A stretch of DNA of 64,000 nucleotides from Chloroflexota bacterium (GCA_965243625.1 CBDEVI010000002.1:1974525-2038524); one strand, 5' to 3'; positions 1 to 58,458 are shown, counted from the first letter of the stretch. Numbers and translations are program-made. The notes: a model not told the origin generated them from the sequence alone.

Positions 1-76
1 GCAATCCGCCCGACGTAATACCATGGCGCCGGCGCCGCGATTGGAGCGGCGCCGTTCAGCGGAGCAGCGCAGGTCT

Positions 77-643
77 ATGCCGGTCAACGGGTCCCGTCGA
101 ACCGCGCGCCTCGGGCGCGCCATTTGCGTGTTTCTGAGCGGCGTTTTCCTCGCCGGCGCCCTGGCGGCCTGCGGCGAGTCGAGCCGTTTCTCCGACCTGG
201 CGCCCACCCCTGAACCGACCCCCGCCGTCGCCCAACTGCTGGCCATGGTCCCGGCGGGACGGACCGCGCCCAACCTGGCCCCGGCGCCGCCCCCGCGCAC
301 GCCGGAAGCGGTCATTACCATGGCGGCGCCGACGCCCGTCGTGATCGAGACGCCGACGCCGCCGCCAAGCGGGGAGGGACCGGCCCCGCCGCCACCGACG
401 GCGGCGCCGCCCAGCGACCTTTCCCCCGGGCATCAGCTTTTCATCGCCAACGGCTGCACGGTCTGCCACGCCGAAGACCTGAGCGGCGGCATCGGACCGG
501 CGCTCGCGGGACGGACGGTTGACGATCTGACCGAGGAGCGCATCCGCCAGCAGCTCGGCGAGGGCGGCAACGGCATGCCGCCGTTTCCCGACTTGACGGA
601 AGAGCAAATCGTTCAGCTCATGGAATTCATTCGCAGCTCCTGA
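77..643 (+). CDS. c-type cytochrome lipoprotein (mono-haem, CxxCH) with Pro/Thr-rich linker
   Basis: Lipobox-like signal (LAGALAACGES), PT/PA-rich linker, haem-binding motif CTVCH, then GGIGPALAG...GMPPFP typical of class I cytochrome c. ATG at 77 is preceded by GGAGCAG; an upstream in-frame start at 23 is possible. Confidence 0.6.
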   Translation: MPVNGSRRTARLGRAICVFLSGVFLAGALAACGESSRFSDLAPTPEPTPAVAQLLAMVPAGRTAPNLAPAPPPRTPEAVITMAAPTPVVIETPTPPPSGEGPAPPPPTAAPPSDLSPGHQLFIANGCTVCHAEDLSGGIGPALAGRTVDDLTEERIRQQLGEGGNGMPPFPDLTEEQIVQLMEFIRSS

Positions 644-710
644 GTCCAAAATGACAATGCGCGTCCGCGCGCTCGTCGTAGAATCTGATGAAGGTCCGGT
701 GAGGAGCGCC

Positions 711-1388
711 ATGTTGCGCGTCGGAATCGTCGCAGCGATCGCGTTTACGGTGGTCCTGGCGGCGTGCGGCGACACTGCCGCTCCAGCAGCGCCCGCCGCC
801 GAGGCCGCACCGACGGCGACCGAAGCCCCCGCGCCGCCCACGGCAACGGACACTCCCGCTCCGCCGCCCGCGCCAACGCCGCAGCCGACGGCCACGCAGG
901 CGCCACAGCCAGCCGCCACGCCGACCCCGCCGCCGGCCCCAGCAAGGCCAGTTGCCGTCGACTTCTCGCTTCCAAGCGCCCAGGGTCCGCAATACACCCT
1001 GAGCTCATTCGCGGGGCAGCAGCCGGTGGTGGTGGTCTTCTACCGCGCTTTCTGGTGAGGGACCTGCCGCACCCAGCTCGTGGAGCTGCAGAAGCACTAC
1101 CAGGAGTTCGAGTCTCGGGGCGTGGAGATCCTCGCCGTCAGCACCGACTCGCTGGAAGACACCGCCGGCATCGTGGAGCGGGTCGGCATCCAATTCCCGG
1201 TGCTCTACAACATCGAGGGCAACGTCCCCCGCGAATACGGCATCTTCAATCTCTACGGCGACGGGCTCGCCACGGGGTCGGCGTTCTTGATTGATCTTGA
1301 CGGGAACCTGGCCTGGAAGTCGATCTACAGCGGCGTCCACGACCTGATCACGTCAGCCGACATCCTGGCGGCCATCGACGAGCTGTAG
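711..1388 (+). CDS. TlpA/ResA-like thiol:disulfide oxidoreductase lipoprotein, candidate selenoprotein (in-frame UGA at 1056-1058 read as Sec; motif FW-U-GTC)
   Basis: Signal/lipobox (VVLAACGD), PT-rich linker, then ...VVVFYRAFW-TGA-GTCRTQLVELQKHYQEFESRGVEILAVSTDS... The ORFs at 651-1058 and 1080-1388 are in the same frame, separated only by the TGA. The TGA sits exactly where the first Cys of the thioredoxin-fold WCxxC motif belongs. RBS GGTGAGGAG lies upstream of the ATG at 711. The paralog at 1540 has the identical layout. Confidence 0.6.
780..960 (+). repeat. Pro/Thr/Ala-rich low-complexity coding repeat (linker)
   Basis: Reiterated CCGACGCC/GCGCCGAC units encoding APTATEAPAPPTATDTPAPP. 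Confidence 0.7.
1074..1088 (+). promoter_or_regulatory. putative bacterial SECIS-like hairpin (CAGCUC-GUG-GAGCUG) 15 nt downstream of the in-frame UGA
   Basis: Perfect 6-bp stem with a G/U-containing loop, starting 15 nt 3' of the TGA. The identical 15-mer is conserved after the TGA of the paralog (2401-2415) although the intervening codons differ. Confidence 0.4.
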
Positions 1389-1539
1389 CGCAACGGCGGC
1401 GCCCGCACGCCGGGGCGATCTGGCGGAAACGCGGATTGGCCGCCTCATCGCATTCATCGGCCGGCCAAAGGCCGCGACGGCAAACCGGGACTACGCCACC
1501 GACGTAGAATTCGAGGGAAGAGGCGTCGGGAGAATCCGG

Positions 1540-2715
1540 GTGCGCGTCGGGATCATCGCGGTCGTCGCGCTGGCGGTCGTCCTGGCCGCGTGCGGCGAAG
1601 CCGCCGAGCCCGCGGAGCCCGCCGCCGAGGCGGCGCCCACGGCAACCGCGACTCCGCCGCCGGCGCCAACGGACACTCCCGCTCCGCCGCCACCCGCGCC
1701 GACGCCAACCAGCCCGCCGACGCCCACCGCCGCTGCCGCACCGACTCCAGTAGCTGTCGCCGCAGCGCCAACTCCCACGGCTGTTCCCGAGCCGACCTCG
1801 ACCCCGGCGCCCGAACCCACGTCCACTCCGGCCCCAACGCCCACGCCGGCGCCCGCCCCAACGTTCACGCCACAACCCACGCCCACCACGGCGCCCGCGC
1901 CGACACCGACTCCCGCACCCCAGCCCACGCCAACGCCACAGCCGACTCCCACGCGGGCACCAGAGCCCACGCCAACGCCGCAACCGACGCCTACGCCCGC
2001 GCCGGAACCCACGCCGACTCCAACCCCCGAGCCGACGGCACTCGACCTTTATGACGACGACGGCAACGGTCGGATCTCATGCGCCGAAGCACGCGCGCAC
2101 GGGATTGCCCCGGTCAGGAGCGACCATCCGGCGTACGAGTACATGACGGATCGAGACGGCGACGGCGTGGTTTGCGAGACGGCCGCGTCCACGCCGACGC
2201 CGGAACCGACCCCGACGCCGGAACCGACGCCCACACCACAGCCAACCCCGACCCCAACGTCCGCACCGGCCAGACCGGCCGCCGTCGACTTTTCGCTGCC
2301 AAGCGCTCAGGGCCCGCAATACACCCTGAGCTCATTCCAGGGACAGCAGCCGGTGGTGGTGGTGTTCTACCGCGCCTTCTGGTGAACGGCTTGCCGTACG
2401 CAGCTCGTGGAGCTGCAGAACAACTACCAGGAGTTCCAATCGCGCGGCGTGGAGGTCCTGGCTATCAGCACCGACTCGCTGGAAGACACCGCCGGTATCA
2501 TTGCGCAGATCGGCATCGAATTCCCGGTGCTCTACAACACCGAAGGTGACGTGCCCAGGGCCTACGGCGTCTTCAATCACTTTGGCGACGGTCTCGCCAC
2601 GGGGTCGGCATTCCTGGTCGATCTGGACGGGAGTTTGGCCTGGAGTCGGATCTACAGCGGCGTCTACGACTTGATCACATCCGCCGACATCCTGGCGGCC
2701 ATCGACGCGCTGTAG
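1540..2715 (+). CDS. TlpA/ResA-like thiol:disulfide oxidoreductase lipoprotein with Excalibur Ca-binding domain, candidate selenoprotein (in-frame UGA at 2383-2385; motif FW-U-TAC)
   Basis: GTG start at 1540 with GGGAGAA RBS and lipobox VLAACGE. A long PTPEPTP linker contains DDDGNGRISCAEA...DRDGDGVVCE (Excalibur DxDxDGxxCE). The C-terminal redoxin domain is interrupted by a TGA in the same frame, exactly as in the upstream paralog: ORFs 1540-2385 and 2407-2715 are co-linear. Confidence 0.6.
1620..2040 (+). repeat. PTPEPTP-type low-complexity coding repeat (linker)
   Basis: Dozens of ACGCCGACGCC-like 6-9 nt units. It explains the long antisense ORFs. Confidence 0.75.
2401..2415 (+). promoter_or_regulatory. 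putative SECIS-like hairpin of the second UxxC gene
   Basis: Same CAGCTCGTGGAGCTG hairpin, 15 nt after the TGA at 2383-2385. Confidence 0.4.
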
Positions 2716-2790: not shown

Positions 2791-3855
2791 ATGAATAACC
2801 CGCTGCGAGCCGGCGTGGTCGGCCTGACCGGCATCGGGGCCAATCGTCCCGGGCCAGGGCCGGGACCGGGCACCGGCTTCGAGATGCCGCATTCGCACGT
2901 CGCCGCCTATCGCCATGTCGCCGGCACCGAGCCGGTGGCGGTGTGCGACATCGTGCCCGAGAAGCTGGACGACTTTCACCGCACCTGGAGCGACGTGCTG
3001 CCCGACGTGCGCGGCTACACCGATTACCGCGAGATGCTGGCCCGCGAGGAGCTGGACGTGATCAGCGTGGCGACCCCGGACGACCGGCACGCGCAGATCG
3101 TGGTCGACGCGGTGGACGCCGGCGTGCGCGGGATCGTGTGCGAAAAGCCCATCGCCTCGACGCTGGCCGACGCCGACCGCATGATCGCCGCCGTCGAGGC
3201 CGCGGGCGTCCCCATGCTGGTGGATCACACGAGGCGCTGGATGTTCCCATGGGTGCAGGTGGCGGAAGTGATTGCGTCCGGCGAAATCGGCGACGTGCAG
3301 CGGATCGTGGCCAACCAGGGCGGCCCGCGGGCGATGCTGTTTCGCAACGGCACCCACATGTTCGACACCATTCTCTGGTTCGCCGGCGGCACGCCCACCG
3401 CGGTCTACGCGATCGCCGAAGCCGGGTTCGAGGACTACCCTCCGCGCTATGCCAGCGACGGCGGCCACGACCCCGACACCGACCCGGCCATGTCCGTGGT
3501 CGTCGAGTTCGACAACGGCGTGCGCGCCTTCTGGAACATGTGCAAGACCATGCCCCAGGTGTTCTCGCTGGAGGTCTTGGGCACTGCCGGGATCGCGCGT
3601 GTGGACGACTCGGGCAACGCGAGCGTCGTCGTCAAGAACGGCGGCGACTTTCAGCAGCGCAGCCTTCCCCGACCCCAGTACACCCTGGGCCACATCGCCG
3701 GCTGCGTCGAGGAAATGGTGCAGCTGATCCACCACGGCGGGCAGCCCTCGATGGACGGTCGGACATCGCGCCAGGTCGTGGAAGTGCTGCTGGCCGCGCT
3801 GCACTCGCAGCACGCCGGCAACGCCCGCATCACGCTGCCGATCACCGACGTGTAG
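2791..3855 (+). CDS. Gfo/Idh/MocA family NAD(P)-dependent oxidoreductase
   Basis: N-terminal Rossmann motif (GVVGLTGIG) and the family hallmark VATPDDRHAQIVVDAVDAGVRGIVCEKPIA...VDHTRRW. Confidence 0.85.
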   Translation: MNNPLRAGVVGLTGIGANRPGPGPGPGTGFEMPHSHVAAYRHVAGTEPVAVCDIVPEKLDDFHRTWSDVLPDVRGYTDYREMLAREELDVISVATPDDRHAQIVVDAVDAGVRGIVCEKPIASTLADADRMIAAVEAAGVPMLVDHTRRWMFPWVQVAEVIASGEIGDVQRIVANQGGPRAMLFRNGTHMFDTILWFAGGTPTAVYAIAEAGFEDYPPRYASDGGHDPDTDPAMSVVVEFDNGVRAFWNMCKTMPQVFSLEVLGTAGIARVDDSGNASVVVKNGGDFQQRSLPRPQYTLGHIAGCVEEMVQLIHHGGQPSMDGRTSRQVVEVLLAALHSQHAGNARITLPITDV

Positions 3856-3866
3856 GCGGCCCGCGG

Positions 3867-4850
3867 CTAAAGCGACTTGATATAGGCCACGATCGCCAAT
3901 AGCTCTTCGCGCGAGAGCAGCGTGTCGAGGTCGGCCTGCATCAGGCCTGCTTCGTATCCCTCCACGACTTCCGCGTTGGGGTCCACGATCGCGCGCAGCA
4001 GGTAGGCGTCGTCGGCGATGACCGTTGAGCCGTCGGCCAGCGTGACCCGGCTGAGGTAGACGCCCTGCCAGGTGGGCCCGATGCCGTCGGTCCCATCGCT
4101 GCTGTGGCACGCCTCGCAACCAATGGCGCGGACGAGCGAAGCCCCCAAGGCCGGATCAGGCGCCGCCACGGTGGGCGTGGGCTCCGGTGTGGGCGTGGGC
4201 GTTGGTTGCGGCGTAGGGGTTGGCGTTGGCGTTGGCGTCGGTGAGGGAGTCGGCGTGGGTGCCGGTGTTGGAGTCGGCGTCGGTTCCGGCGTGGGCGTGG
4301 GAGTCGGTTGCGGAGTCGGCGTGGGAGTGGGAGTGGGCCGCGGGGTCGGGGTCGGTTCCGGAGTTGGCGTGGGCTCCGGCGTGGGTGTCGGCGCGGCGGT
4401 CGGGGTGGGCGGCGGTGTCGCGGTGGGTTCCGGTGTCGCCGTTGGTTCCGGCGTGGTCGTCGGCTGGGGTGTGGGCGTAGGCGCCAGCGTCGGCGCGGGC
4501 GTCGCCGTGGGCGCTGGCGATGGGGTGGGCTCCGGGGTCTGCGTTGGCGTCGGAGTAGGCTCGGGCGTTGAGGTCGGCGTGGGTTCCGGCACGGGCGTAG
4601 GCTCGACCGTGGCAGTCGGCGCGAGCCTCGTCACCGTCGTCGGCGTCGAGGTTGGCGTGGGTGCAGGCGTGGGGGATGCAGCCGGTGGCGTGGCCGCCGC
4701 AGGCGGAGCTGAGGCTTCCCCGCATGCCAGGCACAGGAAGCCCACCGCGACGATGACGCCCGCTATTCGGGAGATGCTCGAGGGACCGGTCGACCGGCGC
4801 ATGGGTCCGCCCCGGCGACCACGGGCGAATCTACGCACGCGTCGGTTCAC
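3867..4850 (-). CDS. c-type cytochrome lipoprotein (CxxCH) with very long PTPEPTP linker
   Basis: Signal/lipobox ([10 protein letters not shown]), about 200 aa of PTPEPTP repeats, then a C-terminal cytochrome c domain: [18 protein letters not shown]...[11 protein letters not shown]. Confidence 0.7.
4150..4720 (-). repeat. PTPEPTP low-complexity coding repeat (linker of the cytochrome c gene)
   Basis: GGCGTGGG/GGTTCCGG-type units throughout. Confidence 0.75.
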
Positions 4851-4882: not shown

Positions 4883-5977
4883 GTGCTCGGGGCCATGCGA
4901 ATGTGTCCTGCAATCTCGTCGCGCGGCGCATACGCGAGAGAGTATCGCGCGAGACTGGTAAATTCTGCCGTTGCTCCCCTTGAGTGCCCGCGGCAGGCAG
5001 CAGAGGTCGTCTTGGTCGTGCCGGAACAGTCTCCGCAGCGGAATCTGGCGATTGTCACTCGCAACGTCCTCGCTCAAGCCGTGCAGCTGATGGGGACGGT
5101 CGTGTCCTATTCGGCGACGGCGCTCCTGCTTGCGGTCACCCTGTTCGTGGCGATCCTGCCCGCGCGCCTTGTGGATGCGGCCGCCGCCTGGCTGGGACGC
5201 CGCGTGTATGCCCGGGGCGGGCGTCGCTCGCGCCAGCTGCGCGCCAACCTGTCGGTGGCCATGGGCCCATCGGCCTCGGCGCAAGACGTAAACGCCGCGG
5301 CCGGGGATGTCTATGCCAGTTACGGGCGCTACCTGGTGGAGTACTTCACGATGATCTGGCCCGATTGGTGGCGCCGACACCGCCGGGTCGAGATCGATTC
5401 GTCAGAGTTGGCGGCCGCGCTCGATGCAGGCCGGGGCGCCATCATCGTGAGCATGCACGCTGCGAGCTTTGAGATCGCCGCCCGCGAGCTGCGACGGCGA
5501 CACGCACCCATCTCTTCCGCCGGCGAACGGCTGCGTCCGCACTGGCTGGGGCGCGTGTTCGCGATGATCCGACGACAGGCAAAGATCGAGGTGCACGACG
5601 AGCGCGAGGCCGCCCGCCCGCTGCTGCGCGCGCTGCGCCGCAACGAGGCCGTGGGACTGGCCGCGGACCGCGTCATCATCGGCGACGGCGTGCCAGTGCA
5701 GCTGTGCGGCGAGACCGCGCTGCTCCCCAAGGGGCCCGCGCTGCTCGCCATCATGAGCGGCGCGCCGCTGATGCCCGCCTTCACCCGCCGCTTGCCCGAC
5801 GGGCGCGTGCAGGGCTACTTCGGACGCGCCATCCACCTGCGCGACCTGGACCGCTCGAACGACGGCCTGCAGGAAGGCGTGCAACGCATGGCGGATGTGC
5901 TGACGGAGATGATCGGCTACGGCTACCGCAGCTGGTACGCCCTGCACCCGGTGTGGCAAGCGGCGCGGGTGCGATAG
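4883..5977 (+). CDS. lipid A biosynthesis-type acyltransferase (LpxL/HtrB/PatA lysophospholipid acyltransferase family)
   Basis: N-terminal membrane anchor, then RGAIIVSMHAASFE (HX4D/E-like), LRRNEAVGLAADR and LPKGPALLAIMSGAPLMPAF, all typical of PF03279-type acyltransferases. GTG at 4883 with AGGAAA RBS; an alternative ATG at 5090 is possible. Confidence 0.55.
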   Translation: MLGAMRMCPAISSRGAYAREYRARLVNSAVAPLECPRQAAEVVLVVPEQSPQRNLAIVTRNVLAQAVQLMGTVVSYSATALLLAVTLFVAILPARLVDAAAAWLGRRVYARGGRRSRQLRANLSVAMGPSASAQDVNAAAGDVYASYGRYLVEYFTMIWPDWWRRHRRVEIDSSELAAALDAGRGAIIVSMHAASFEIAARELRRRHAPISSAGERLRPHWLGRVFAMIRRQAKIEVHDEREAARPLLRALRRNEAVGLAADRVIIGDGVPVQLCGETALLPKGPALLAIMSGAPLMPAFTRRLPDGRVQGYFGRAIHLRDLDRSNDGLQEGVQRMADVLTEMIGYGYRSWYALHPVWQAARVR

Positions 5978-11294: not shown

Positions 11295-12182
11295 ATGAGT
11301 CGCACCCACTCCTGCGAACCCACGATGACGGATGAGGACGTGGTGCGGTTCTGCCGCAACGGCTACTGGATTCTCGAAGCGGCGGTGCCGGACGAGATCA
11401 ACCGGCGAGCGCTGGACTATCTGGCGTCGAACACGAGCGGGGAACCCACTGAAATCCTGCACGAGGACTGGTTCGTCGACGGCGTGATTCTCAACCCGGC
11501 GGCCGCTGGAGCGGTGCGCTCGCTGCTGGGCGACGGCTTCGCCCTGCCGACGCTGATGGCCAATCACCGGGGCCGGGGACCGGCCAAACCCCAGGATTGG
11601 CACCGGGACAGCGGCTCACGCCACGGCCCGGAACTCAACTACCTGCAGGTCTTCTACTACCCCCAGGACGTGCCGCCGGAGATGGGTCCCACGGAGCTGC
11701 TGCCGGGCTCGCACTTCCTCTACCAGCGGGAAAAGCACATGGCGCATTACGGTGCGATCAAGGGCGGCGTGCTCACCAGCGGGCCGGCCGGTTCGATCTT
11801 CATCACCGCCTACAACATCTGGCACCGTCGGGCGGCTCGCACGGCGCCTGCGGCGGCCGGCGTGCGCCACTTGCTCAAATACAACTACTGGCGGACGGTC
11901 GACCCGAGGCGAGACTGGATCGTGAACCCGGAGTTCGACGTCGCGTCGGCGGATTTCGTTGTCGACGGGCTGAGGTTCGCCGACGGGGTCCGAGATTGCG
12001 TCGACGCGGCCGAGATGTATTTCTGGCTCTGCGGGAAGATCGACGAGTTTCACTACCTGGGCGGTCAGTCGTGGCCCGCGGACATCCTGCTGACCAAGCC
12101 GGCTCCCGGTTCCCACGAACGCGCCAGGTACCGCCAGCGCTTCGGCGTGCCGGGCGACATGACCGATCGACGGGAGAGGTGA
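11295..12182 (+). CDS. phytanoyl-CoA dioxygenase (PhyH) family Fe(II)/2OG-dependent oxygenase
   Basis: WHRDSG (HxD), ELLPGSHF and NIWHRR follow the PhyH architecture. GGAGG RBS. A paralog of 17010-17918. Confidence 0.8.
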   Translation: MSRTHSCEPTMTDEDVVRFCRNGYWILEAAVPDEINRRALDYLASNTSGEPTEILHEDWFVDGVILNPAAAGAVRSLLGDGFALPTLMANHRGRGPAKPQDWHRDSGSRHGPELNYLQVFYYPQDVPPEMGPTELLPGSHFLYQREKHMAHYGAIKGGVLTSGPAGSIFITAYNIWHRRAARTAPAAAGVRHLLKYNYWRTVDPRRDWIVNPEFDVASADFVVDGLRFADGVRDCVDAAEMYFWLCGKIDEFHYLGGQSWPADILLTKPAPGSHERARYRQRFGVPGDMTDRRER

Positions 12183-22141: not shown

Positions 22142-25100
22142 GTGCCGCGAGCAGGCACAATCCGGAGACCAAGGGGCACGAATCTAGGATTCTCTTCCGT
22201 GGCAGTCGACTCCACCTTGTCCGAGGGCATTCGAGAGCTCATACAGCGACTTGAGATCAAGCTCGGACAAGCTCGCGCGATTTCCGGCAAACCGCAGGAG
22301 TTGGCGGGCTTCTGGAACGCCGGCCCGGTGGAGGTCGCTTACGCGCCAAATCCGATTCCGGAGGGCAGCCTGGGCCGCGTGTGGCGCGATAGGCAAGCCG
22401 GCCGCGCAACGGCGCTGCTAGTGATCTGTCCGGGCGAGGCGGACGAACGTCTGGCCGTGGTTGGGCCTAACAGCCAACAGCCAGTAAGGCGGGCGCACGC
22501 GCACGCGCTCATCCAGGAGCTGCTGGACGCCGCTTCGCGCAGCCAACTCGAGGCCGCCCGGCGGCTCGATGCGGCGCTCGCCGTTCTGAATCTGTCCGCC
22601 GTTCCCGGCGTCGTCGCCCACGGATTGCTTACCACCCACTACCTTACGCGCCGGCTGAGCAGCCATCGGCGAGAGCTGAAAGATGCGTCCGCCGAGACCG
22701 AGGGCGTCGGCGCCTGGCGCGCTCTGGTGCAAGCACTCGGGTACAGCCTGCGCACGCGCGAACCGGATTACTACGTGCTGGAGGCGGACGGCCGAGCATT
22801 GGCGGCGCTGCGCGCACTGTCCGAACCGGGGCAGTTTGGGCGCGCGGGCCCGGGCGGCCAATTGCCGGAAGCAGCGCTGCTGGCCAATTGCCAGCGGGAA
22901 AACACGACCTGGGGTTTCCTGGCAGCTGGGGAGCGGCTGCGCCTGTACGCCTCGGCGCCGGAACGCGGATCGGCCATCGACCGCTGGCTGGAGATTGATG
23001 CCAGCCTTGTGCCCGGCGATTGGCGGTGGCTCCTGGGACTGTTCGCTCCGATTTCGCTGAAGCCCGACGGCCTCTTGGATCAGTTCCAGGTCAGGGCCGC
23101 CGATCACGGAACCGAGTTGCGCGAGCGCATCGAGCAGCAAATCCGCGAACGCGCCCTACCCGCCATCGCACGCGGGCTGGGCGAATGGATTGAAGCAAAC
23201 CAAGGCGCTGACCTCTCCGATCCGGCGACCCGCGAAGAGATTCAGGAGGCCAGCCTCACCTTCCTTTTCCGCGTGCTGTTTCTGTTGTACGCGGAGAGCC
23301 TGGACTTTCTGCCGGCCTACGCCGCCGCCTACCAGCCGCATTCGGCTACGACCATCGCGCGTGAAGCGCGCGACAACATCGATCGCCGTGGCGGATCGAC
23401 AACGACATGGGCGCGGCTGCGCACGCTGTTTCACGCCGTCAGTGGCGGCGACGCGGCCTGGGGCGTCTACGCCTACAACGGCGCACTGTTCGCGGCTGAA
23501 GACGGGCTGCCGGGCGCCGGGCTCTTGGAGCACGCCGATGTCCGCGACGACCACATGCGGCCCGCGCTGGTCGCCATCGGATTCGACGACGAGGCGGCTG
23601 ACGCCGACGCGGGCGTGGATTACGGCGGCCTGGACGTGGGTCACCTGGGCGCGATCTACGAGGGCCTGCTGGCGCTCAAGCTCTCGCGCGCTAGCGAGGC
23701 GCTGGGCTGGGACAAACGCCGCAAGCGCTACGTGCCGCAAGCTGAGCCGGGAGAGGACGGCATCGCGGCGGGTCAACTCTTCTTCCAGACGGAAGCCGGG
23801 GGACGCAAGGGCGGCGGCGTCTACTACACGCCGCAGCTGCTGGTGCGGCACCTGGTGAACCACTCCGTGATCCCGGCATTGGACGAGCATTTGCGGGGAA
23901 TCGCGAACCTACGCCAGCGTGACCCAGACGCGGCGTCGCGGCGGCTGTTCGAGTTTCGGGTGCTGGACCCGGCCATGGGCAGCGCCCACTTCCTGGCCGA
24001 CGCGCTGGACCGCATGGCCGACCACTATGCGAGCTTCCTGGCGGAGCATTCCCTTCCCGGCGTTCGCGAGCGGCTGATCGCCCTCCGGCGCGAGGCCGAA
24101 GGGGCCGAACGAGCGGAAGACGCCCAACTCCTGCGGCGGCTGATTCTCAAGCGCTGCATCTACGGTGTGGACCTCTCACCCATGGCGGTGGAGATCGGCC
24201 GCGTGAGCTTGTGGCTCAAGAGCTTCGTGCCCGGCATGGCGCTGAGCTACCTCGGTCACAACCTGCAAACCGGCGACGCGCTGGTGGGGGCAGCCACGCT
24301 CGGAGGCCGACGTGCCGCGGCCCTCCATAGGCGGCCGCAAACCGGCGACGCGTCAGTGCGAGCGGCAGCGCTGGACCCCGTGGCCAGCGTGCTGCCGCTG
24401 GTGCTCACCGAACGGGACTCGCCAATTCTCCGTGCGCTCGAAGTAGCGGCGTCCAAGGCCCGAGAGTTGGCGGACATCGAGGACCGCACCCCCGGAGACG
24501 TGGCTCGCTCGCAAGAGGTCGAGGCTGAGTTGCGCGAGGCCGCCGCCGGAGTGCGTCGGGTGCTTGATCTTTGGACGGCCGAGCCGTTCGGCGTCGAGGG
24601 TGCCCGCCAGGTCCTGGCGCGCAAGTCGGTCGCGAACGTGATCGCGGATGAGGCGTCGGGGAAAGACGCCGAGCTGCTGTCGGCCGCGCAAGCCGAAGCC
24701 GCCCGGCGTCATTTCTTCCACTGGCCGGCAGCCTTTCCCGAGGTGTTTCAGCCCGATGGCGAGCGGCCTGGATTCGACGCGGTTGTGGGCAATCCTCCGT
24801 GGAATGAAATCACTATCGAGGAATTGGCGTTCTACGCCCTCCACGATCCTGGCCTACGAGCCCTCCAGTCGAACGCCGAACGTGAAGCACGGATTATTCG
24901 CCTTGTCCAGCAGTTCCCAGAGTTGCCCAGAGCTTTCGAGCGGCTAAGGGCTCGATTAGAGCAGGAGCGGGCGTTCTTTCGCGCGGAGAACGGATACGTG
25001 GCTCAAGGATCGGGCGATACGGATGTCTACAAACTCTTCTGCGAGCGCTACCGGCATCTTGTGCGAGAAGGCGGGCGCGTTGGCGTGGTGCTGCCCCGCT

Positions 25101-26257
25101 CGGCTCTTCAGACGAAGGGCGCGCGCGGCTTCCGAGATTGGCTGTTTAGTCAAGCGCCACCAGAGCGCGTGGATTTCTTGCTCAATTCAGGGCGCTGGGC
25201 ATTCGACATGGAACCGCGCTACACCATCGCGCTGCTGGCGGCGGCGCATCGCGCACCCGCGAAGAATGCAACGCTGACCATGACGGGACCGTCAGCCAGC
25301 CGACAGGCGTTCGAGAATCGCTCTGAGGTTCGGATTCCGGTGGCGGCGCTCGGCACTGGCCACATGGTGCCGCTGCTGCCGAGCCAAGCCCAGGCCGATG
25401 TGCTGGCCAAGACGCGGCTGGGTATTCGAATTGATGAACTACGGATTCCGGGAACGAAGACCGGCGCTGCTTCGTCTCGTCTAATTCCCTATACGGAGTT
25501 GCACGAGACGAAGCAGCGCCGGTTCTTTGATCTCCCTCGAGGTGAAGGCGACACCCCCGTCTGGAAGGGGCGCTCATTTGGGCAGTACGACCCACATGGC
25601 CGCGATCCGGCAGGAGACTGTTGGTGGGGCGATACTTTCGAATTCGTCCAAACCAAACGCGCGCGTGCGCGCGTTTTCAAAAATCTGTTCTCGCCCAGCG
25701 TGCTCGCCGATCCGGCCACGCATCCGGTGCGCCGGGCACGTATTGCCTTTAGCGACGTGACCAACCGTACAAACTCCCGAACCGTGATTGCCTGTTTGAT
25801 CCCGCCGAAAGTCTTCCTTGTAAACAGCGCGCCATACTTGGTGTCGCCCACAGGAGATGCCCATGCGCAGATGGTCGCGCTTGGGGTACTGAACAGCTTG
25901 CCCTTCGACTGGCAAGCCAGGCGCTTCGTTGAGTTACACGTCAGCTTCTTTCTCCTCAACATGCTGTGTTTTCCACCCATCGAGTCGCTGGACCGAGACG
26001 CGATAGCGCGGCACGCCGGCCGCCTGTCGTGCGTGGACAAACGCTTCGCCGAGTTCGCGGCCGAGGCGGACGTGGACTGCGGCCCGCTGCTGCCCGAGCA
26101 ACGCGACGAGCTGCGCGCCGAGATCGATGCGCTGGTGGCCCACGGTTACGGCCTTTCCGCTGACGACCTGGAAGTCGTCTTCGACGACTTCACGCTGGCC
26201 GCCGTGCCGACCGCCTATCGCGACCTGGTGCGCGACGCCTATCGGCGGCTCGCGTGA
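22142..26257 (+). CDS. large gamma-class N6-adenine DNA methyltransferase of the Eco57I/BREX-PglX/DISARM-DrmMI type (1371 aa)
   Basis: Helical N-terminal region with LTFLFRVLFLLYAESLDFLP and LGAIYEGLL. GVYYTPQLLVRHLV (motif X). FRVLDPAMGSAHFL (motif I, AdoMet). IYGVDLSPMAVEIGRVSLWLK. VVGNPPW (motif IV, NPPW). C-terminal TaqI_C-like target-recognition region (LGVLNSLPFDW). GTG start. There is no internal Met for about 470 aa, so the start is uncertain. Confidence 0.8.
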   Translation: MPRAGTIRRPRGTNLGFSSVAVDSTLSEGIRELIQRLEIKLGQARAISGKPQELAGFWNAGPVEVAYAPNPIPEGSLGRVWRDRQAGRATALLVICPGEADERLAVVGPNSQQPVRRAHAHALIQELLDAASRSQLEAARRLDAALAVLNLSAVPGVVAHGLLTTHYLTRRLSSHRRELKDASAETEGVGAWRALVQALGYSLRTREPDYYVLEADGRALAALRALSEPGQFGRAGPGGQLPEAALLANCQRENTTWGFLAAGERLRLYASAPERGSAIDRWLEIDASLVPGDWRWLLGLFAPISLKPDGLLDQFQVRAADHGTELRERIEQQIRERALPAIARGLGEWIEANQGADLSDPATREEIQEASLTFLFRVLFLLYAESLDFLPAYAAAYQPHSATTIAREARDNIDRRGGSTTTWARLRTLFHAVSGGDAAWGVYAYNGALFAAEDGLPGAGLLEHADVRDDHMRPALVAIGFDDEAADADAGVDYGGLDVGHLGAIYEGLLALKLSRASEALGWDKRRKRYVPQAEPGEDGIAAGQLFFQTEAGGRKGGGVYYTPQLLVRHLVNHSVIPALDEHLRGIANLRQRDPDAASRRLFEFRVLDPAMGSAHFLADALDRMADHYASFLAEHSLPGVRERLIALRREAEGAERAEDAQLLRRLILKRCIYGVDLSPMAVEIGRVSLWLKSFVPGMALSYLGHNLQTGDALVGAATLGGRRAAALHRRPQTGDASVRAAALDPVASVLPLVLTERDSPILRALEVAASKARELADIEDRTPGDVARSQEVEAELREAAAGVRRVLDLWTAEPFGVEGARQVLARKSVANVIADEASGKDAELLSAAQAEAARRHFFHWPAAFPEVFQPDGERPGFDAVVGNPPWNEITIEELAFYALHDPGLRALQSNAEREARIIRLVQQFPELPRAFERLRARLEQERAFFRAENGYVAQGSGDTDVYKLFCERYRHLVREGGRVGVVLPRSALQTKGARGFRDWLFSQAPPERVDFLLNSGRWAFDMEPRYTIALLAAAHRAPAKNATLTMTGPSASRQAFENRSEVRIPVAALGTGHMVPLLPSQAQADVLAKTRLGIRIDELRIPGTKTGAASSRLIPYTELHETKQRRFFDLPRGEGDTPVWKGRSFGQYDPHGRDPAGDCWWGDTFEFVQTKRARARVFKNLFSPSVLADPATHPVRRARIAFSDVTNRTNSRTVIACLIPPKVFLVNSAPYLVSPTGDAHAQMVALGVLNSLPFDWQARRFVELHVSFFLLNMLCFPPIESLDRDAIARHAGRLSCVDKRFAEFAAEADVDCGPLLPEQRDELRAEIDALVAHGYGLSADDLEVVFDDFTLAAVPTAYRDLVRDAYRRLA

Positions 26258-29200
26258 CGATGGACTCGCCGTCGGGCGGCCAGCCGGAGTTGATCGACAA
26301 CCGGGAGCGCTACTCGCACGGCGAGGCGCTGGAATGGCTGGCGGCCCACTACCCCCTGCCGCTGCGCGCGGCCAGCGGCTACGTGCGCCTGGGCGGGTTG
26401 CACGCGCTGGCCCAGATGCCGGGGCCGGCGGACCGGCCGGTGCGGCTGCTGCTCGGGGCGATGCCCGATCCAGGTCTGGGTGAGGACTCGCCAATCGACG
26501 AAGCGCGGCAGGTGAATCAACTCTTCGAGCGCGCCCTCGAACGTCTGCGACGCGAGCGCGACTTCGACGCCTTCCCACCCAGCCGCCGGCTACAGGCTCT
26601 GGCCGCGGTAGACGACTTTCTGCGGGCGCCGCGGGTGGAGGTGCGCCGCTACGCGCCACGATTCCTGCACGGCAAGACCTACATCCTCAGCAGCGACCCC
26701 CACCACGAGGCCGCGCCGGGGGCGGCGCTGGTGACGTCGGCCAACCTGACAAGGGGAGGGCTTTCCGGAAACTTGGAATTGGGGCTGGCGCGCTATGACC
26801 CGTGGTTGGTACGAGAGGCCGCCAACTGGTTCGACGGGCTTTGGGCGGAGGCCGAGCCGTTCAAGGATGAGCTCCTGGATCTGCTGTTGCCGCCTCCGCA
26901 GGCGCAAGACCCGGAGACTATCTTTCTGCGCGCGCTGCTGGAGCTTTACGGCGACGAGTTCGCGGAGGTTGACCCGCCGCCGGTGACCACGCTGGCCGAG
27001 TTTCAGCGCGACGGCTACGAGCGCGCCCGCTACATCGTCGATGCCTACGGCGGCGTGATCTATGCCGACGGAGTTGGCACGGGCAAGACGTTCATTGGGG
27101 TGGAGTTCGTGCGCGACTACGCGCGCGAGCGCGGCCTCTACACGCTGGTGGTGGCACCGGCGCAGCTGCGCGACACGACCTGGGTACAGGCGCTGCGGGC
27201 GGCCAACCTGCCACATGAGGTGGTGTCCTACCAGGAATTGGCCGCCGACGAGCAACTAGCGGATCCCTCCCACAGGCAACGCCAACGGGTGCTGAGCCTC
27301 AACAAGGACGCCTATCGGCTGATACTCGTGGACGAGGCGCATGCCTTCCGCAACCGCGACACGACTTGGTATGGCGCGCTTCATCGACTGCTCGGCGGCG
27401 AGCCCAAGCACCTGGTGCTACTCACGGCCACGCCGGTCAACAACTCGCTGTGGGACCTGTATCACCAGATCATGCTGTTTGCACGGGCGGAGTCCCGCTT
27501 CGCCGGAGCGCCGCTCCGCGTTCGCGACTTGAAGCAGTTTTTCGTCACGGCGGGCGCCAACGAGCCGGAAAGCGCCTCACACGCGAAGCTGTTCCCGCTG
27601 CTCGATGCAGTGGCGGTACGGCGCGACCGGCGTTTCTTGCAGGAGCGCTACCAAAACGCGGCCTTTCCGGATGGCACCCCGGTGCGCTTTCCCCAGCCAC
27701 GCTTGACCGCTCACCGCTACGACCTGGACGCGGCCTATCCCGGCGTATTCACCGAGATCGTGGCGGCGATCGACAAACTCGAGATGGCGCGCTATCGGCC
27801 CTCGGCCTACTTGCGCGACCAGGCCGAAGAAAGCGCGCACGAGAACGTGTTGGCCGCGCTGATCCAATCTGGACTGTTGAAGCGCTTCGAGTCGTCGGTG
27901 TACGCCGCGCACAAGACCGTCGAGCGGATGGTGGCAGCCCACGAACTGGTACTGCGTGCGCTCACCGAGCACGACCTGGTGCCTGGGCCCGAGCAATTAC
28001 TCGAGCTGCTTGCCGAAGACTCCGATGGCTGGGACACGGCAGAGCTCGAGGACGCCCTGCTGGAGGCTTGCGGAGACGCCTGGGCGGCCACGGACTTCGA
28101 GGACAGCTTCGGCGAGCACCTTGACGCCGACTTGAGCACGCTGCGCCTGCTGCGGGTGCGCCTTTCTGATCTGCTGCAAGTCGAGGATCCCAAGCTGACC
28201 GCGCTGGCCCGCGTGCTGCAAGAAACGCCGGCACGCAAGGTGGTGGTCTTTGCGAGCTACGCGGACACCGTGGCGTACCTGGATGAACAGTTGCGCTCGC
28301 GGCCCGAGATTGGCAACGGGCGGGCAATGGCCGTGATCCACGGCAGCGCCGAGGACGCCGCAACTCGCACGCACATTCTCGAACGCTTCTGCCCCCGTTC
28401 CATGACGGACGACCCGGATTTCAGACCGCGGGATGGCGAGGTCGATCTGCTTCTAAGCACGGACGTGGTGTCCGAAGGTCAGAACCTGCAAGACGCCCAG
28501 GCGGTCGTCTCCTACGACATGCCCTGGAACCCGCAGCGTGTGGTGCAACGTAATGGCCGAGTGATTCGCCTCAAGTCGGACTTCGATGAGGTGTTCCTCG
28601 CCACGCTGCTGCCCGCCGACGGTGCGCTGGAAGAGGAATTGGAGTTGGAGTCCAAACTGCGCGCCAAGATCGCGGCGGCCAACGCCTCTATTGGAATGGA
28701 GTCCGAGGTGCTGGCCGACGCCGGGGCAGAGTCCCGAAACTACGCCGAACTCAAGGCATTCAGCGACCGGCTGGTGGAAGGCGACGCCGACCTGTTGGCC
28801 GAAGGCGAGGGCGGTGAGATCGGCTCGTTCGCGGGCGAGGCATACCGCCACCGGCTCCGGCGCGCTCGCGATGAGGGGCGGTTGGAGGAACTGAGGGGAC
28901 TTCCTTGGGGGATCGGCGCGGCGTTCCGGGCTGCCACCCAGCCTGCCGACGTGAATCTGCCGGGCGTGTTCTTTGCCTGCCGGACACGCGCGGACCGTCG
29001 CTACTGGCGATTCGTGGACGCCGACGGCCGCGTACTGACGACAGACTTGCGGATGCTGCAGCTGGCGGACCCGCACGGCGCCATCGGCGAGCCCGAGCCC
29101 ACGACCATTGACCTGGATGCTGTCTGGCAGGTGGCCGTGAACGACATCTGCACCGAGCACAACGCGCAGCTCGATCCGCAGACCCGCGAGGCGCGCTTGC

Positions 29201-29517
29201 CCGCCAGCCAGCGCTGGGCGCTCCAGGACATCCTGCGCTCGGCCGAGGCGCCGGGCGGGCGAGAATTCGAGCAAGCGCACGACGCGCTGACGGTTGCGCG
29301 CCCGGGAATCGTGCTGCGCGACCTGTCCGCAATCCGCCACCGCCAGCAGGACGGGGAGCTAAGCGTCTCCGAGGCTGCAGAGGAGATTGCTAGTGCGGTT
29401 CAGCGGCACGGGCTAAGGCCGATGCAAGTGCCAGACGAACCGGAATCGGAAATCACTCCGGACGACGTGGGCGTGGTCTGTTATCAGATCGTCCTGCCAC
29501 CGGGCTCTGACGCGTGA
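26254..29517 (+). CDS. PLD-family (HKD) nuclease fused to an SNF2/DEAH superfamily-2 helicase (1087 aa)
   Basis: Start overlaps or abuts the methyltransferase stop (GTGACGATG). PLD motif FLHGKTYILSSD...LVTSANLT. Helicase motif I DGVGTGKTF, motif II LILVDEAHAFRN, SNF2 motif III LLTATPVNNSLWDLY. C-terminal motifs V/VI: STDVVSEGQNLQDAQAVVSYDMPWNPQRVVQRNGRVIRL. Confidence 0.85.
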   Translation: MTMDSPSGGQPELIDNRERYSHGEALEWLAAHYPLPLRAASGYVRLGGLHALAQMPGPADRPVRLLLGAMPDPGLGEDSPIDEARQVNQLFERALERLRRERDFDAFPPSRRLQALAAVDDFLRAPRVEVRRYAPRFLHGKTYILSSDPHHEAAPGAALVTSANLTRGGLSGNLELGLARYDPWLVREAANWFDGLWAEAEPFKDELLDLLLPPPQAQDPETIFLRALLELYGDEFAEVDPPPVTTLAEFQRDGYERARYIVDAYGGVIYADGVGTGKTFIGVEFVRDYARERGLYTLVVAPAQLRDTTWVQALRAANLPHEVVSYQELAADEQLADPSHRQRQRVLSLNKDAYRLILVDEAHAFRNRDTTWYGALHRLLGGEPKHLVLLTATPVNNSLWDLYHQIMLFARAESRFAGAPLRVRDLKQFFVTAGANEPESASHAKLFPLLDAVAVRRDRRFLQERYQNAAFPDGTPVRFPQPRLTAHRYDLDAAYPGVFTEIVAAIDKLEMARYRPSAYLRDQAEESAHENVLAALIQSGLLKRFESSVYAAHKTVERMVAAHELVLRALTEHDLVPGPEQLLELLAEDSDGWDTAELEDALLEACGDAWAATDFEDSFGEHLDADLSTLRLLRVRLSDLLQVEDPKLTALARVLQETPARKVVVFASYADTVAYLDEQLRSRPEIGNGRAMAVIHGSAEDAATRTHILERFCPRSMTDDPDFRPRDGEVDLLLSTDVVSEGQNLQDAQAVVSYDMPWNPQRVVQRNGRVIRLKSDFDEVFLATLLPADGALEEELELESKLRAKIAAANASIGMESEVLADAGAESRNYAELKAFSDRLVEGDADLLAEGEGGEIGSFAGEAYRHRLRRARDEGRLEELRGLPWGIGAAFRAATQPADVNLPGVFFACRTRADRRYWRFVDADGRVLTTDLRMLQLADPHGAIGEPEPTTIDLDAVWQVAVNDICTEHNAQLDPQTREARLPASQRWALQDILRSAEAPGGREFEQAHDALTVARPGIVLRDLSAIRHRQQDGELSVSEAAEEIASAVQRHGLRPMQVPDEPESEITPDDVGVVCYQIVLPPGSDA

Positions 29518-56648: not shown

Positions 56649-58448
56649 ATGACCACCAAGCCAATCGTCACACTCGGCATCCACGAGGGGCTGATGGCCG
56701 CGGCCGCGCTCGTCGTTGATGGCGAACTCCGCGCCGCATGCGCCGAGGAGCGGCTGACGCGCCACAAGAACCAATCCGGTATCCCCCTGCGTGCGATCGA
56801 ATCCGTGTTGGCTACGGCGGGGCTTTCCATCGACGACGTCAACGTGATCGCGCCGAGCACCCAGGACGCCATCATCCCGACAATTGGCGACGTGCCGACA
56901 TCCGGGGCGACGGAGCGGTTTTTCGATGTTTACGGACTTGGCGGACGCTTGCTTGCGTCGATCGAGCGGCGCTGGCCCGCCAGCCGGGCCCTGACGGCGC
57001 CATCCGACTTCGCCCGACGGCTCGGCCGACCACTGCTCCAGCGCACCCGAGCCGCCGCCGTCAGCGCGGCAACCGGCGTCGATGCGCAGCGGATGGTGTC
57101 CTACGACCACCACTCGTCGCATGTCATGGCGCTGGCGGCAGTAGCCGGTCCCGCGAATCAACTTGTCTTCACGCTGGATGGCGAGGGCGATGGGTTGAGC
57201 GGATCGGTCGCGTGGTACCGCGCCGGACAGCCGCCCGAGCGGATCGGCTCCGTCTCGCGCAATGCTTCGCTCGGGCACATCTATGCCGGCGTGACCGGAC
57301 ACCTGCGCATGAGGTCGCACCAGGACGAATTCAAGGTGATGGGCATGGCGCCATATGCCCACGCCAGCGCCCGCGATGCCTGTCACGACCGACTGCGATC
57401 CCTGCTCCGGGTGGAGCGAGATTCGTCCGGAACGCCCGACATCAAGTCCTCGCGCGGCACGCGCCTCGCGCCGCGCTTCATCGGCGACTACGTGCGAGAT
57501 TTCAGGTTCGACGCCCAGTGCGGGGGCGTGCAGGCACTCTGCGAAGACACCATCGTGGAGTGGACGACCGCTTGGGTGGAGCACGTGGGCCTCGACCGCG
57601 ACGGCGTGGACGTCGGGCTTGGCGGCGGCGTCTTCATGAACGTCAAGGCCAACATGCGAATCGCGCAGCAAGCCTGGGCCAACTCGGTTACTCCGGTCCC
57701 GAGCTGCGGCGATGAGTCGTGCGCCGTCGGCGCGGCCTTCCTGGCATACATGGACGTTTGCGCAGCGGCCGGACGCGACGCGCAGATCCAGCCAGTCAAC
57801 GACCTCTACCTCGGGCCGGCGTGGAGCGACGCCGACATCAAGCGGACCGTCGATCGCGCGAGCTCCGCACACGGCCTCCACGTGGAACACCCGGCGGATA
57901 TTACGGATCGGACTGCCGCGTTGCTGGCCGACGGCCACGTCGTCGCGCGCTTTTGTGGACGCATGGAGTGGGGCGCCCGCGCCCTGGGGAATCGGTCCAT
58001 CCTCGCCGATCCCTCGCGGCACGACAGCGTGCGCGAGATCAACAAGCGCATCAAGAGCCGCGACTTCTGGATGCCCTTCGCCGCCACGATTCTCGACGAG
58101 GCGGCGTCCGCCTATCTGCAGACGCCGCCCGCCCCGACCTCGCCGCACATGATGCTCGCGTTCGACACCATGCCCGAACGCTGGCACGAGATTGCCGCCG
58201 GGACGCATCCCTACGACCGCACCTGCCGGGCCCAGATTCTCGAGCGCCGCGCGAATCCGGAGTATTACCGCCTGATCGAGCGCTTTCGCGATCGCACCGG
58301 AATCGCCGCCGTGCTCAACACCAGCCTCAATTTGCATGGCGACCCGATGGTGAACTCACCGGAAGACGCGCTGCGGACACTCCTCGAAAGCGACCTCGCC
58401 TTTCTAGCTCTCGAGGACTTCCTGATCAGCAAGCCCATCGTCACCTAG
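56649..58448 (+). CDS. carbamoyltransferase (NodU/CmcH/NovN family)
   Basis: IVTLGIHEGLMAAAALVVDGELRAACAEERLTR, HHSSHVMALAA, GGGVFMNVKAN and C-terminal VLNTSLNLHGDPMVNSPEDAL are the hallmark segments of O-carbamoyltransferases. Confidence 0.85.
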   Translation: MTTKPIVTLGIHEGLMAAAALVVDGELRAACAEERLTRHKNQSGIPLRAIESVLATAGLSIDDVNVIAPSTQDAIIPTIGDVPTSGATERFFDVYGLGGRLLASIERRWPASRALTAPSDFARRLGRPLLQRTRAAAVSAATGVDAQRMVSYDHHSSHVMALAAVAGPANQLVFTLDGEGDGLSGSVAWYRAGQPPERIGSVSRNASLGHIYAGVTGHLRMRSHQDEFKVMGMAPYAHASARDACHDRLRSLLRVERDSSGTPDIKSSRGTRLAPRFIGDYVRDFRFDAQCGGVQALCEDTIVEWTTAWVEHVGLDRDGVDVGLGGGVFMNVKANMRIAQQAWANSVTPVPSCGDESCAVGAAFLAYMDVCAAAGRDAQIQPVNDLYLGPAWSDADIKRTVDRASSAHGLHVEHPADITDRTAALLADGHVVARFCGRMEWGARALGNRSILADPSRHDSVREINKRIKSRDFWMPFAATILDEAASAYLQTPPAPTSPHMMLAFDTMPERWHEIAAGTHPYDRTCRAQILERRANPEYYRLIERFRDRTGIAAVLNTSLNLHGDPMVNSPEDALRTLLESDLAFLALEDFLISKPIVT

Positions 58449-58458
58449 GACCGGGACC

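Follow-up and report, generated by a model that had tools for sequence, protein, structure and literature searches.

Among predicted bacterial selenoproteins, the most frequent type is the thioredoxin-fold protein with a UxxC motif, in which U is selenocysteine (Sec). One such family is that of the peroxiredoxin (Prx)-like thiol:disulfide oxidoreductases. A 2026 review (PMC13188914, Table 1) lists it as 'Prx-like thiol:disulfide oxidoreductase' (PF00578; UxxC or UxxU) among the families 'predicted with high confidence', and 225 'Prx-like 1' selenoproteins (pfam00578, UxxC) were reported from 37 samples of the Global Ocean Sampling (GOS) survey (PMC2398784, Table 2). In BSepDB, which covers only species with a Sec pathway, two metagenome-assembled genomes (MAGs) of Dehalococcoidia stand among the ten most selenoprotein-rich bacteria (PMC13326102). 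Here we describe two tandem genes (genes 1 and 2) at one end of a 64,000-nucleotide stretch from a Chloroflexota bacterium (GCA_965243625.1, CBDEVI010000002.1:1974525-2038524), hereafter the window. Each is crossed by a single in-frame TGA at its redox-active position. We estimate a probability of about 0.9 that the UGA encodes Sec in both genes, as sequence comparison suggests, and the two would thus be new, mis-annotated members of this known predicted selenoprotein family.

The GOS data contain sequences that align directly with the window proteins. Read JCVI_READ_852987 (PMC2398784, Dataset S1) encodes ...VIIVFYRGYFUGICRAQLGELSQNH... with a lipoprotein-like leader; its alignment to the window protein is gapless over 127 residues (33% identity, E = 3e-27) and places Sec on Sec, and it reaches up to 40% identity with copies at other loci. 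Sec also falls on Sec in the alignment with JCVI_READ_286511 (30% identity, E = 7e-16). What the window proteins share with Prx-like 1 is PF00578 together with UxxC in an FYR(A/G)x(W/F)-U-xxC-(R/T/K)xQL context. The original prediction, made from the DNA sequence of the window, had proposed the two genes as candidate UxxC selenoproteins; the conserved TGA, the aligned Cys and the hairpin described below support it, for a kind of protein that was already known (PMC13188914; PMC2398784).

To place the genes among their relatives, we used a one-genome-per-species scan seeded on C-terminal peptides, which are independent of the TGA site. It yielded 79 homologous loci (given L numbers here), all from Chloroflexota, Dehalococcoidia or SAR202, and including the cultured Candidatus (Ca.) Lucifugimonas marina JH545 (L038). 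The nearest relatives are the sponge-type MAGs COS3_bin_17 and RHO3_bin_74, and one of the two Dehalococcoidia MAGs in the BSepDB top ten belongs to the same assembly series, named by universally unique identifiers (UUIDs), as many of the related loci. Unlike Prx-like 1, this Chloroflexota clade is Sec-only in the 79 loci examined, has tandem arrays of two to three Sec paralogues and carries long Pro/Thr-rich linkers, to which gene 2 adds an Excalibur domain. A literature search on selenoproteins in SAR202 or Lucifugimonas found no report. The apparent clade-wide use of Sec alone, the tandem arrays, the linker-lipoprotein architecture, the cytochrome c modules and the clear demonstration of a minimal selenocysteine insertion sequence (SECIS) may be undescribed.

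Single-frame translation gives one in-frame stop per gene, TGA 1056-1058 within 651-1388 and TGA 2383-2385 within 1540-2715. The open reading frames (ORFs) on either side are co-framed (651..1058 with 1080..1388; 1540..2385 with 2407..2715), so that the frame does continue through a single TGA in both paralogs, as originally proposed. The contexts are ...VVVVFYRAFW-[TGA]-GTCRTQLVELQ in gene 1 and ...VVVVFYRAFW-[TGA]-TACRTQLVELQ in gene 2, which agrees with the claim that the TGA occupies the redox-active position of a W-[TGA]-x-x-C motif. The placement of the beginning of gene 1 at 651 needs revision: its likely start is GTG 699 or ATG 711, because AGGAG lies upstream and the homologue P0025 begins MRSAKLRVGIV, with ATG 651 as an alternative. 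An alignment to Cys-containing homologues had been suggested as a check, and it puts a Cys at the TGA position in P0052/P0053 (FYRGLHCPICRSQL) and likewise in P0055, P0057, P0061, P0088, P0092, P0134 and P0202 (examples of the aligned sequences are FYRAYWCSACRRQL, FYRAFWCTNCREQL and FYRGFFCGICRGQLVELQ).

The TGA is conserved throughout the family. A stop at the identical codon, followed by x-x-Cys, is present in 78 of the 79 loci, the exception (L065) being degenerate. This codon is TGA in 80/80 aligned copies and in 132/132 gene copies when the window and the 79 related loci are counted together. Most loci contain two to three tandem paralogues, and a tblastn survey found the stop in every copy with the redox motif. 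The assemblies behind the 132 copies are independent of one another and include complete long-read chromosomes and the cultured isolate. Two copies with the same 'defect' had been taken to argue against a pseudogene or a sequencing error, and this larger set argues against both as well. The ratio of nonsynonymous to synonymous substitution rates (dN/dS) between the window gene and its relatives is 0.03-0.3 both over the 36 codons before the TGA and over the 109 codons after it, so purifying selection acts on both sides. The Cys three codons past the TGA is invariant in the 78 loci, even though it lies upstream of any internal start.

In 11 SAR202-type loci (sites include L038 ~10850, L032 2228, L047 10602, L053 4941, L057 10635 and L063 2564), the Sec genes are immediately followed by a redox-dead paralogue, which has neither CxxC nor UxxC and carries the motif LFVPxxxDELDxxQ. 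At L064 (9146) and L067 (9227) the frame stays open for 276 and 249 codons past the UGA, compared with the usual ~110, which may reflect a fusion with the next gene or a lost stop.

Downstream of both TGAs is a hairpin that we regard as a SECIS candidate. Its sequence, CAGCTC-GTG-GAGCTG, begins exactly 15 nucleotides after each TGA (1074-1088 and 2401-2415) and is identical in the two genes, although the five intervening codons differ (GGG ACC TGC CGC ACC in gene 1, ACG GCT TGC CGT ACG in gene 2); the original prediction had rightly drawn attention to this. With the UGA numbered 1-3, the stem is formed by positions 18-24 paired with 28-34, and the family consensus is G-C-A-R-C-U-[N-G-K-N-N]-A-G-Y-U-G-C. 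The loop fits N-G-K-N-N in 131/132 copies, and its codon is GUN or GGN in the same proportion (131/132), so that the residue encoded there is only Val or Gly.

Three of the stem pairs do not vary at all across 72 distinct sequences. Alignment pair 27:37 does vary, and it does so in a coordinated way (A:U 39, G:C 26, G:U 6, A-C 1), with a covariation score of 0.139 against 0.082 in shuffled alignments, none of 500 of which reached 0.139. Its two members are synonymous positions: base three of a Gln codon and base one of a Leu codon. In the full set of 132 copies this pair is A:U in 65, G:C in 56, G:U in 10 and A-C in one, and a neighbour-joining tree implies at least 11 switches between the A:U and G:C states. 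No such coupling ties the Gln position to the third base of the Gln codon that follows 15 nucleotides away (G/A 36, A/A 34, A/G 28, G/G 24), and GC content therefore does not account for the pattern.

Codon choice within the hairpin is constrained as well. In the 3' arm, the Glu/Lys/Gln codon is NAG in 120/120 copies (the remaining 12 have GAT), whereas GAA has a share of 57% among the other Glu codons of these genes. Of the two Leu codons, the first is CUN in all 132 copies and the second YUG in 125/132, compared with about 38% elsewhere. We did not find the hairpin in the 11 redox-dead paralogues of the same loci or in a Cys homologue. Single-sequence energetics are modest: the isolated hairpins have predicted energies of -7.4 kcal/mol (gene 1) and -10.1 kcal/mol (gene 2), and z is about -1.5 to -2.4 in context (about -1.8 to -2.4 for gene 2). 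The predicted minimum-energy fold of gene 2 includes the hairpin. It also shows a long-range pairing, UUCUGGUG with UACCAGGA, which we rejected because it is not conserved in other clades. The compensatory changes and the constraint on synonymous sites across the family confirm that the SECIS-like hairpin is conserved, and that it is kept by selection at the RNA level, acting on synonymous sites; the support is comparative and not energetic.

In the distance of its loop from the UGA and in the G-(G/U) of that loop, the hairpin agrees with bacterial SECIS elements as characterised for E. coli fdhF and in Moorella SelB-SECIS work. Like the fdhF type, the element described here is a hairpin within the coding sequence, directly 3' of the UGA and at a fixed spacing, whose loop starts about 21 nucleotides after the UGA and has an apical G followed by G or U. 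Unlike it, the stem is shorter (6-7 base pairs), a bulged U is not evident and no Rfam model is matched. In BSepDB, 12.6% of the entries are without a canonical SECIS (PMC13326102). By analogy with fdhF, a ribosome that reaches the UGA (1056 or 2383) would meet, 14-15 nucleotides downstream, a hairpin with the stem GCARCU/AGYUGC that could recruit SelB-GTP-Sec-tRNASec; Sec would then be inserted at the UGA and translation would run on to the TAG.

Several observations weigh against Sec insertion. The stem has only 6-7 base pairs, and the gene 1 hairpin is not in the predicted minimum-energy fold. Rfam gave no match for the window at the gathering threshold or for the SECIS regions at E <= 10. 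The conserved peptide Q-L-x-E-L, which is also present in Cys homologues, partly dictates the hairpin sequence. A scan of the 64-kb window found no other in-frame TGA with coding signal on both sides, and a conservation-based scan of all flanks returned only the family of these genes, the other clusters looking like off-frame noise; thus no further selenoprotein candidate appeared that might independently show Sec decoding in these organisms. ARAGORN called no tRNA-Sec, either in the window or across the 79 loci (~1.5 Mb), and tblastn of the same DNA with unverified E. coli probes found no selA or selD, selB being unprobed; these machinery searches cover ~20 kb per genome, less than 1% of each, and the negatives are weak. 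The 64-kb window has no tRNA genes of any kind. A 94-nucleotide 'tRNA-Phe' (anticodon GAA) that ARAGORN called at L004 12894-12987 (-), antisense within a GFO gene, is probably a false call.

The rival that best survives these observations has the UGA read by a near-cognate or suppressor tRNA (Trp, Cys or Arg), with the hairpin acting as a stimulator of read-through and not as a SECIS. It can appeal to the failure to see Sec machinery in the 64-kb window and in ~1.5 Mb of DNA from the related loci, to a hairpin that is short and matches no Rfam family, and to the Trp that gene callers gave in P0102 and P0149. We nevertheless consider it improbable. The site is the catalytic Cys of CxxC, for which Sec is the known substitute; the family has published counterparts among the UxxC Prx-like selenoproteins; in its distance from the UGA and its G-(G/U) loop, the hairpin follows the rules for bacterial SECIS elements; and Dehalococcoidia are documented as heavy users of Sec (PMC13326102). 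Trp or Arg at the nucleophile would moreover abolish redox activity, yet the domain is under strong purifying selection.

We give still less credence to a reading with termination at the UGA and a new start at the hairpin GTG (1080 or 2407), which would produce two polypeptides. The ORFs 1080..1388 and 2407..2715 do begin with GTG, and databases hold exactly such 102-residue products. In many members, however, this codon is GGU, GGG or GGA (Gly) and not a start, and protein-level conservation extends over the seven codons between UGA and GTG, the invariant Cys among them. Restarting would also split the fold at the active site, leaving a C-terminal half without a signal peptide that could not assemble outside the cell. 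Pseudogenes, or sequencing or assembly errors for TGC/TGT, have the presence of a stop codon alone in their favour and are effectively refuted by TGA in 132/132 copies from independent assemblies and by dN/dS far below 1 on both sides. A reassigned code (4 or 25), in which UGA would be a sense codon for Trp or Gly, has nothing specific in its favour and is likewise effectively refuted, by the ordinary use of TGA as a terminator and by the lack of any other in-frame TGA with two-sided coding signal in the 64 kb.

That ordinary use, which had been claimed with 12180-12182 as an example, holds. Among 34 confident window genes, called from third-position GC content, the real terminators are TAG in 22, TGA in 10 (11295-12182 is one of these) and TAA in two, and 28 genes of the family themselves terminate with TGA. 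The stop usage of the window (TAG 22/TGA 10/TAA 2) is unusual for a genome of 67% GC.

Assignment of the fold rests on sequence matches to Pfam and the PDB. Read with C in place of U, both proteins match Pfam AhpC-TSA (gene 1 1e-27, 96.9 bits; gene 2 2.8e-28, 98.8 bits; cutoff 26) and also Redoxin, and no NCBIfam model reaches its cutoff for either. The best PDB match is M. tuberculosis AhpE (1.5e-10), followed by DsbE, ResA (~1e-7) and BCP (~3e-7), and the closest structural relatives, judged by sequence, are peroxiredoxins: AhpE (Rv2238c) and BCP/PrxQ. When AhpE is aligned, PLAFTGIC falls on RAFWUGTC, which places Sec at the Prx Thr and the Cys three residues on at the peroxidatic Cys; Arg stands where Prx has Pro, and Gly where it has the catalytic Arg. 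The peroxiredoxin signature, PxxxTxxC with a catalytic Arg, is thus absent from this alignment. A Trp precedes the nucleophile position, as in WCxxC, and the position of UxxC at the start of the first helix agrees between the AhpE and ResA alignments. The domain therefore looks Prx-like in scaffold and CxxC-type in chemistry, and because the Prx Pro, Thr and Arg are missing, it is likely a UxxC thiol:disulfide oxidoreductase and not a canonical peroxiredoxin. It also differs from PrxU (TxxU), where Sec takes the peroxidatic position and not that of the Thr.

The description of the two genes as ResA/TlpA-like held in part. Like ResA, TlpA and CcmG, the window proteins have a W-C-x-x-C-type motif in a thioredoxin fold with an inserted helix region, are predicted to be membrane-anchored and extracytoplasmic, and, in this clade, are encoded next to c-type cytochrome genes; their proposed nucleophile is Sec, not Cys. 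Scores against the ResA (NF002854; 51.0 and 50.5 bits, cutoff 170) and TlpA (NF047696; 26.7 and 29.1 bits, cutoff 230) models stay far below the NCBIfam cutoffs, no resB, resC or ccdA partner is found among the conserved neighbours of the loci, and an AhpC/TSA 'Prx-like' label, with a WCxxC motif in the style of ResA/TlpA, fits better. Two other groups of thioredoxin-fold UxxC selenoproteins match weakly. One is the seleno-lipoprotein family of Rcas_1661 (NF041057, 'DsbG-like' in PMC13188914), whose cutoff of 190 bits the window proteins, scoring 33.0 and 16.4, do not approach. The other is related to SelL (NF040769; 51.9 and 48.6 bits against 120), with only positions 3-90 of the 173 in the profile matched. 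The window proteins belong to neither group. The NCBIfam models PrxU and WAxxUGC_long score far below their cutoffs.

Read from the sequence, the N-terminus of both window proteins is a signal peptide whose last residues form a lipobox (VLAAC), with a Pro/Thr-rich linker after it; across the family, a crude lipobox pattern (L/V-A-A/G-C) matches at least 102 of 130 copies. Both products are thus predicted lipoproteins displayed outside the cytoplasmic membrane, to which they would be exported, with the linkers holding the catalytic domain off the membrane. Sec would be the exposed nucleophile at the first position of W-U-x-x-C, and the Cys three residues on could resolve a selenenylsulfide. On balance we favour an extracytoplasmic thiol:disulfide (selenenylsulfide) oxidoreductase of ResA/TlpA type as the function, and a glutathione peroxidase-like activity of the Sec is a reasonable alternative. 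The linker of gene 2 is long, with an inserted Excalibur domain (Table 1) that, among the 79 related loci, it has in common only with L002 (RHO3_bin_74); the second copy at L001, orthologous to gene 2, has a plain linker without it. Pro/Thr-rich repeats (PTPEPTPTP..., ~200 residues) serve as linkers in several lipoproteins of this organism, for example those at 3867-4850 (-) and 1540-2715 (+), and produce many spurious overlapping ORFs on both strands.

Table 1. Positions of the two predicted selenoprotein genes, their parts and the adjoining genes in the window.
Feature	Position	Strand	Description
c-type cytochrome, membrane-anchored	23..643	+	Lipobox, Pro-rich linker, CxxCH; Pfam Cytochrome_CBB3 1.4e-11; directly upstream of gene 1
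Predicted selenoprotein gene 1	711..1388	+	Lipoprotein signal peptide, Pro/Thr-rich linker, AhpC/TSA thioredoxin-fold domain with W-U-G-T-C
Gene 1 signal peptide and lipobox	711..767	+	MLRVGIVAAIAFTVVLAA-C, lipidated Cys codon 765-767; read from the sequence
In-frame TGA of gene 1, proposed Sec codon	1056..1058	+	First residue of UxxC, where WCxxC has its nucleophilic Cys
SECIS-like hairpin of gene 1	1074..1088	+	CAGCUC-GUG-GAGCUG, 6 base pairs, GUG loop; encodes Q-L-V-E-L
Gene 1 terminator	1386-1388	+	TAG, true stop
Predicted selenoprotein gene 2	1540..2715	+	Likely start GTG 1540; codon 1591-1593 for the lipobox Cys; AhpC/TSA thioredoxin-fold domain with W-U-T-A-C
Excalibur calcium-binding domain in gene 2 linker	2077..2178 (residues 180-213)	+	PF05901, 39.2 bits against a cutoff of 22, 8.8e-10
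In-frame TGA of gene 2, proposed Sec codon	2383..2385	+	W-[TGA]-T-A-C
SECIS-like hairpin of gene 2	2400..2416	+	GCAGCUC-GUG-GAGCUGC, 7 base pairs, GUG loop; 6-base-pair core 2401-2415
Gene 2 terminator	2713-2715	+	TAG, true stop
GFO/IDH/MocA oxidoreductase	2791..3855	+	Pfam; directly downstream of gene 2
Second c-type cytochrome lipoprotein	3867..4850	-	Pro/Thr-rich linker of ~200 residues; Pfam Cytochrom_C 7.2e-5
Lip_A_acyltrans (lipid A acyltransferase family) gene	4883-5977		Pfam; beyond the second cytochrome

The gene order of the window, including both cytochromes and the pairing with the selenoprotein genes, is kept in the close relatives L001-L008. The GFO gene follows downstream in L001-L022, which form two clades (L001-L008 and L009-L022), at 59-95% identity. 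In several close relatives, L004 among them, within the sponge-associated lineage to which the window belongs, a module of one c-type cytochrome and one selenoprotein gene is repeated (L001 9328-12041; L006 8030-10306; L008 7866-10306; L005 10310-12589). At L005 and L006 the second or third selenoprotein gene is closely preceded, in the same frame, by decayed remnants of cytochrome c (e.g. ...ERIRLQLGERGIGMPLFPDLSEVQIGQLIAFIRSS). In the SAR202 clade, housekeeping genes such as tyrS, ribF, DAHP synthase and trpA flank the family genes. Clustering of the neighbourhoods found no partner conserved across the whole family and no genes for cytochrome maturation or CcdA among the conserved neighbours, and the context therefore gives only a weak lead towards cytochromes. 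We regard a functional link to cytochrome c, for example through apocytochrome c or cytochrome-coupled redox chemistry, as doubtful. A little less likely again is that the clade constitutes an obligately Sec-dependent surface subfamily, an undescribed selenium redox module coupled to cytochrome c.

Elsewhere in the window, 22142-29517 encodes a 1371-residue Eco57I-like restriction-modification methylase that overlaps by four nucleotides a 1087-residue protein with SNF2, helicase-C and PLD domains; this looks like a restriction or defence module unrelated to the selenoprotein genes. At 56649-60270 there are two adjacent paralogous carbamoyltransferase genes, of 599 and 603 residues.

Automated pipelines had been expected to split or truncate these genes, and the public sets do hold them as N-terminal fragments ending ...FYRAFW and 102-residue C-terminal fragments. 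In a collection of 5.8 billion proteins, all close homologues are stored as two such pieces, with 24 clusters of C-terminal pieces of ~102 residues (49-89% identity) and 27 of N-terminal ones. The only full-length matches in it are two Cys proteins at 31-33% identity (P0052/P0053), and it contains no full-length selenoprotein member of the Chloroflexota clade. An exhaustive HMMER search of 1.84 billion representatives returned only 335 related clusters; the best of these are mostly fragments of ~100 residues that begin just past the TGA, and the full-length ones carry Cys. In P0102 and P0149 a Trp occupies the Sec position (FYRGHF-W-GICRAQLGEL), evidently from translation of the TGA by a gene caller with a code-4/25 table. 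The wider family also includes domain fusions: P0078 is a tandem of two Cys-type domains, and in P0101 and P0114 a CxxC-type domain precedes a Sec-type domain, whose record ends ...VVLVFYRAFW at the UGA.

The traits that may be undescribed in this clade are variations on a known theme, and the conceptual gain is small. The family is a clear case of a very short SECIS held by synonymous-site selection inside a coding sequence, an example that could help widen models of bacterial SECIS elements. If the clade is an obligately Sec-dependent surface subfamily, its unusually minimal SECIS would in addition dictate the peptide Q-L-(V/G)-(E/K)-L. A Sec module at the cell surface, if that is what these genes encode, would serve, for example, in peroxide or disulfide detoxification or in the handling of apocytochromes. 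Inventories of redox genes in SAR202, Dehalococcoidia and sponge-symbiont Chloroflexota under-count these proteins, because the genes are stored split and in a few cases with Trp at the Sec position. The cultured carrier Ca. Lucifugimonas marina JH545 provides an experimental handle on a Prx-like UxxC family that has so far been 'predicted'.

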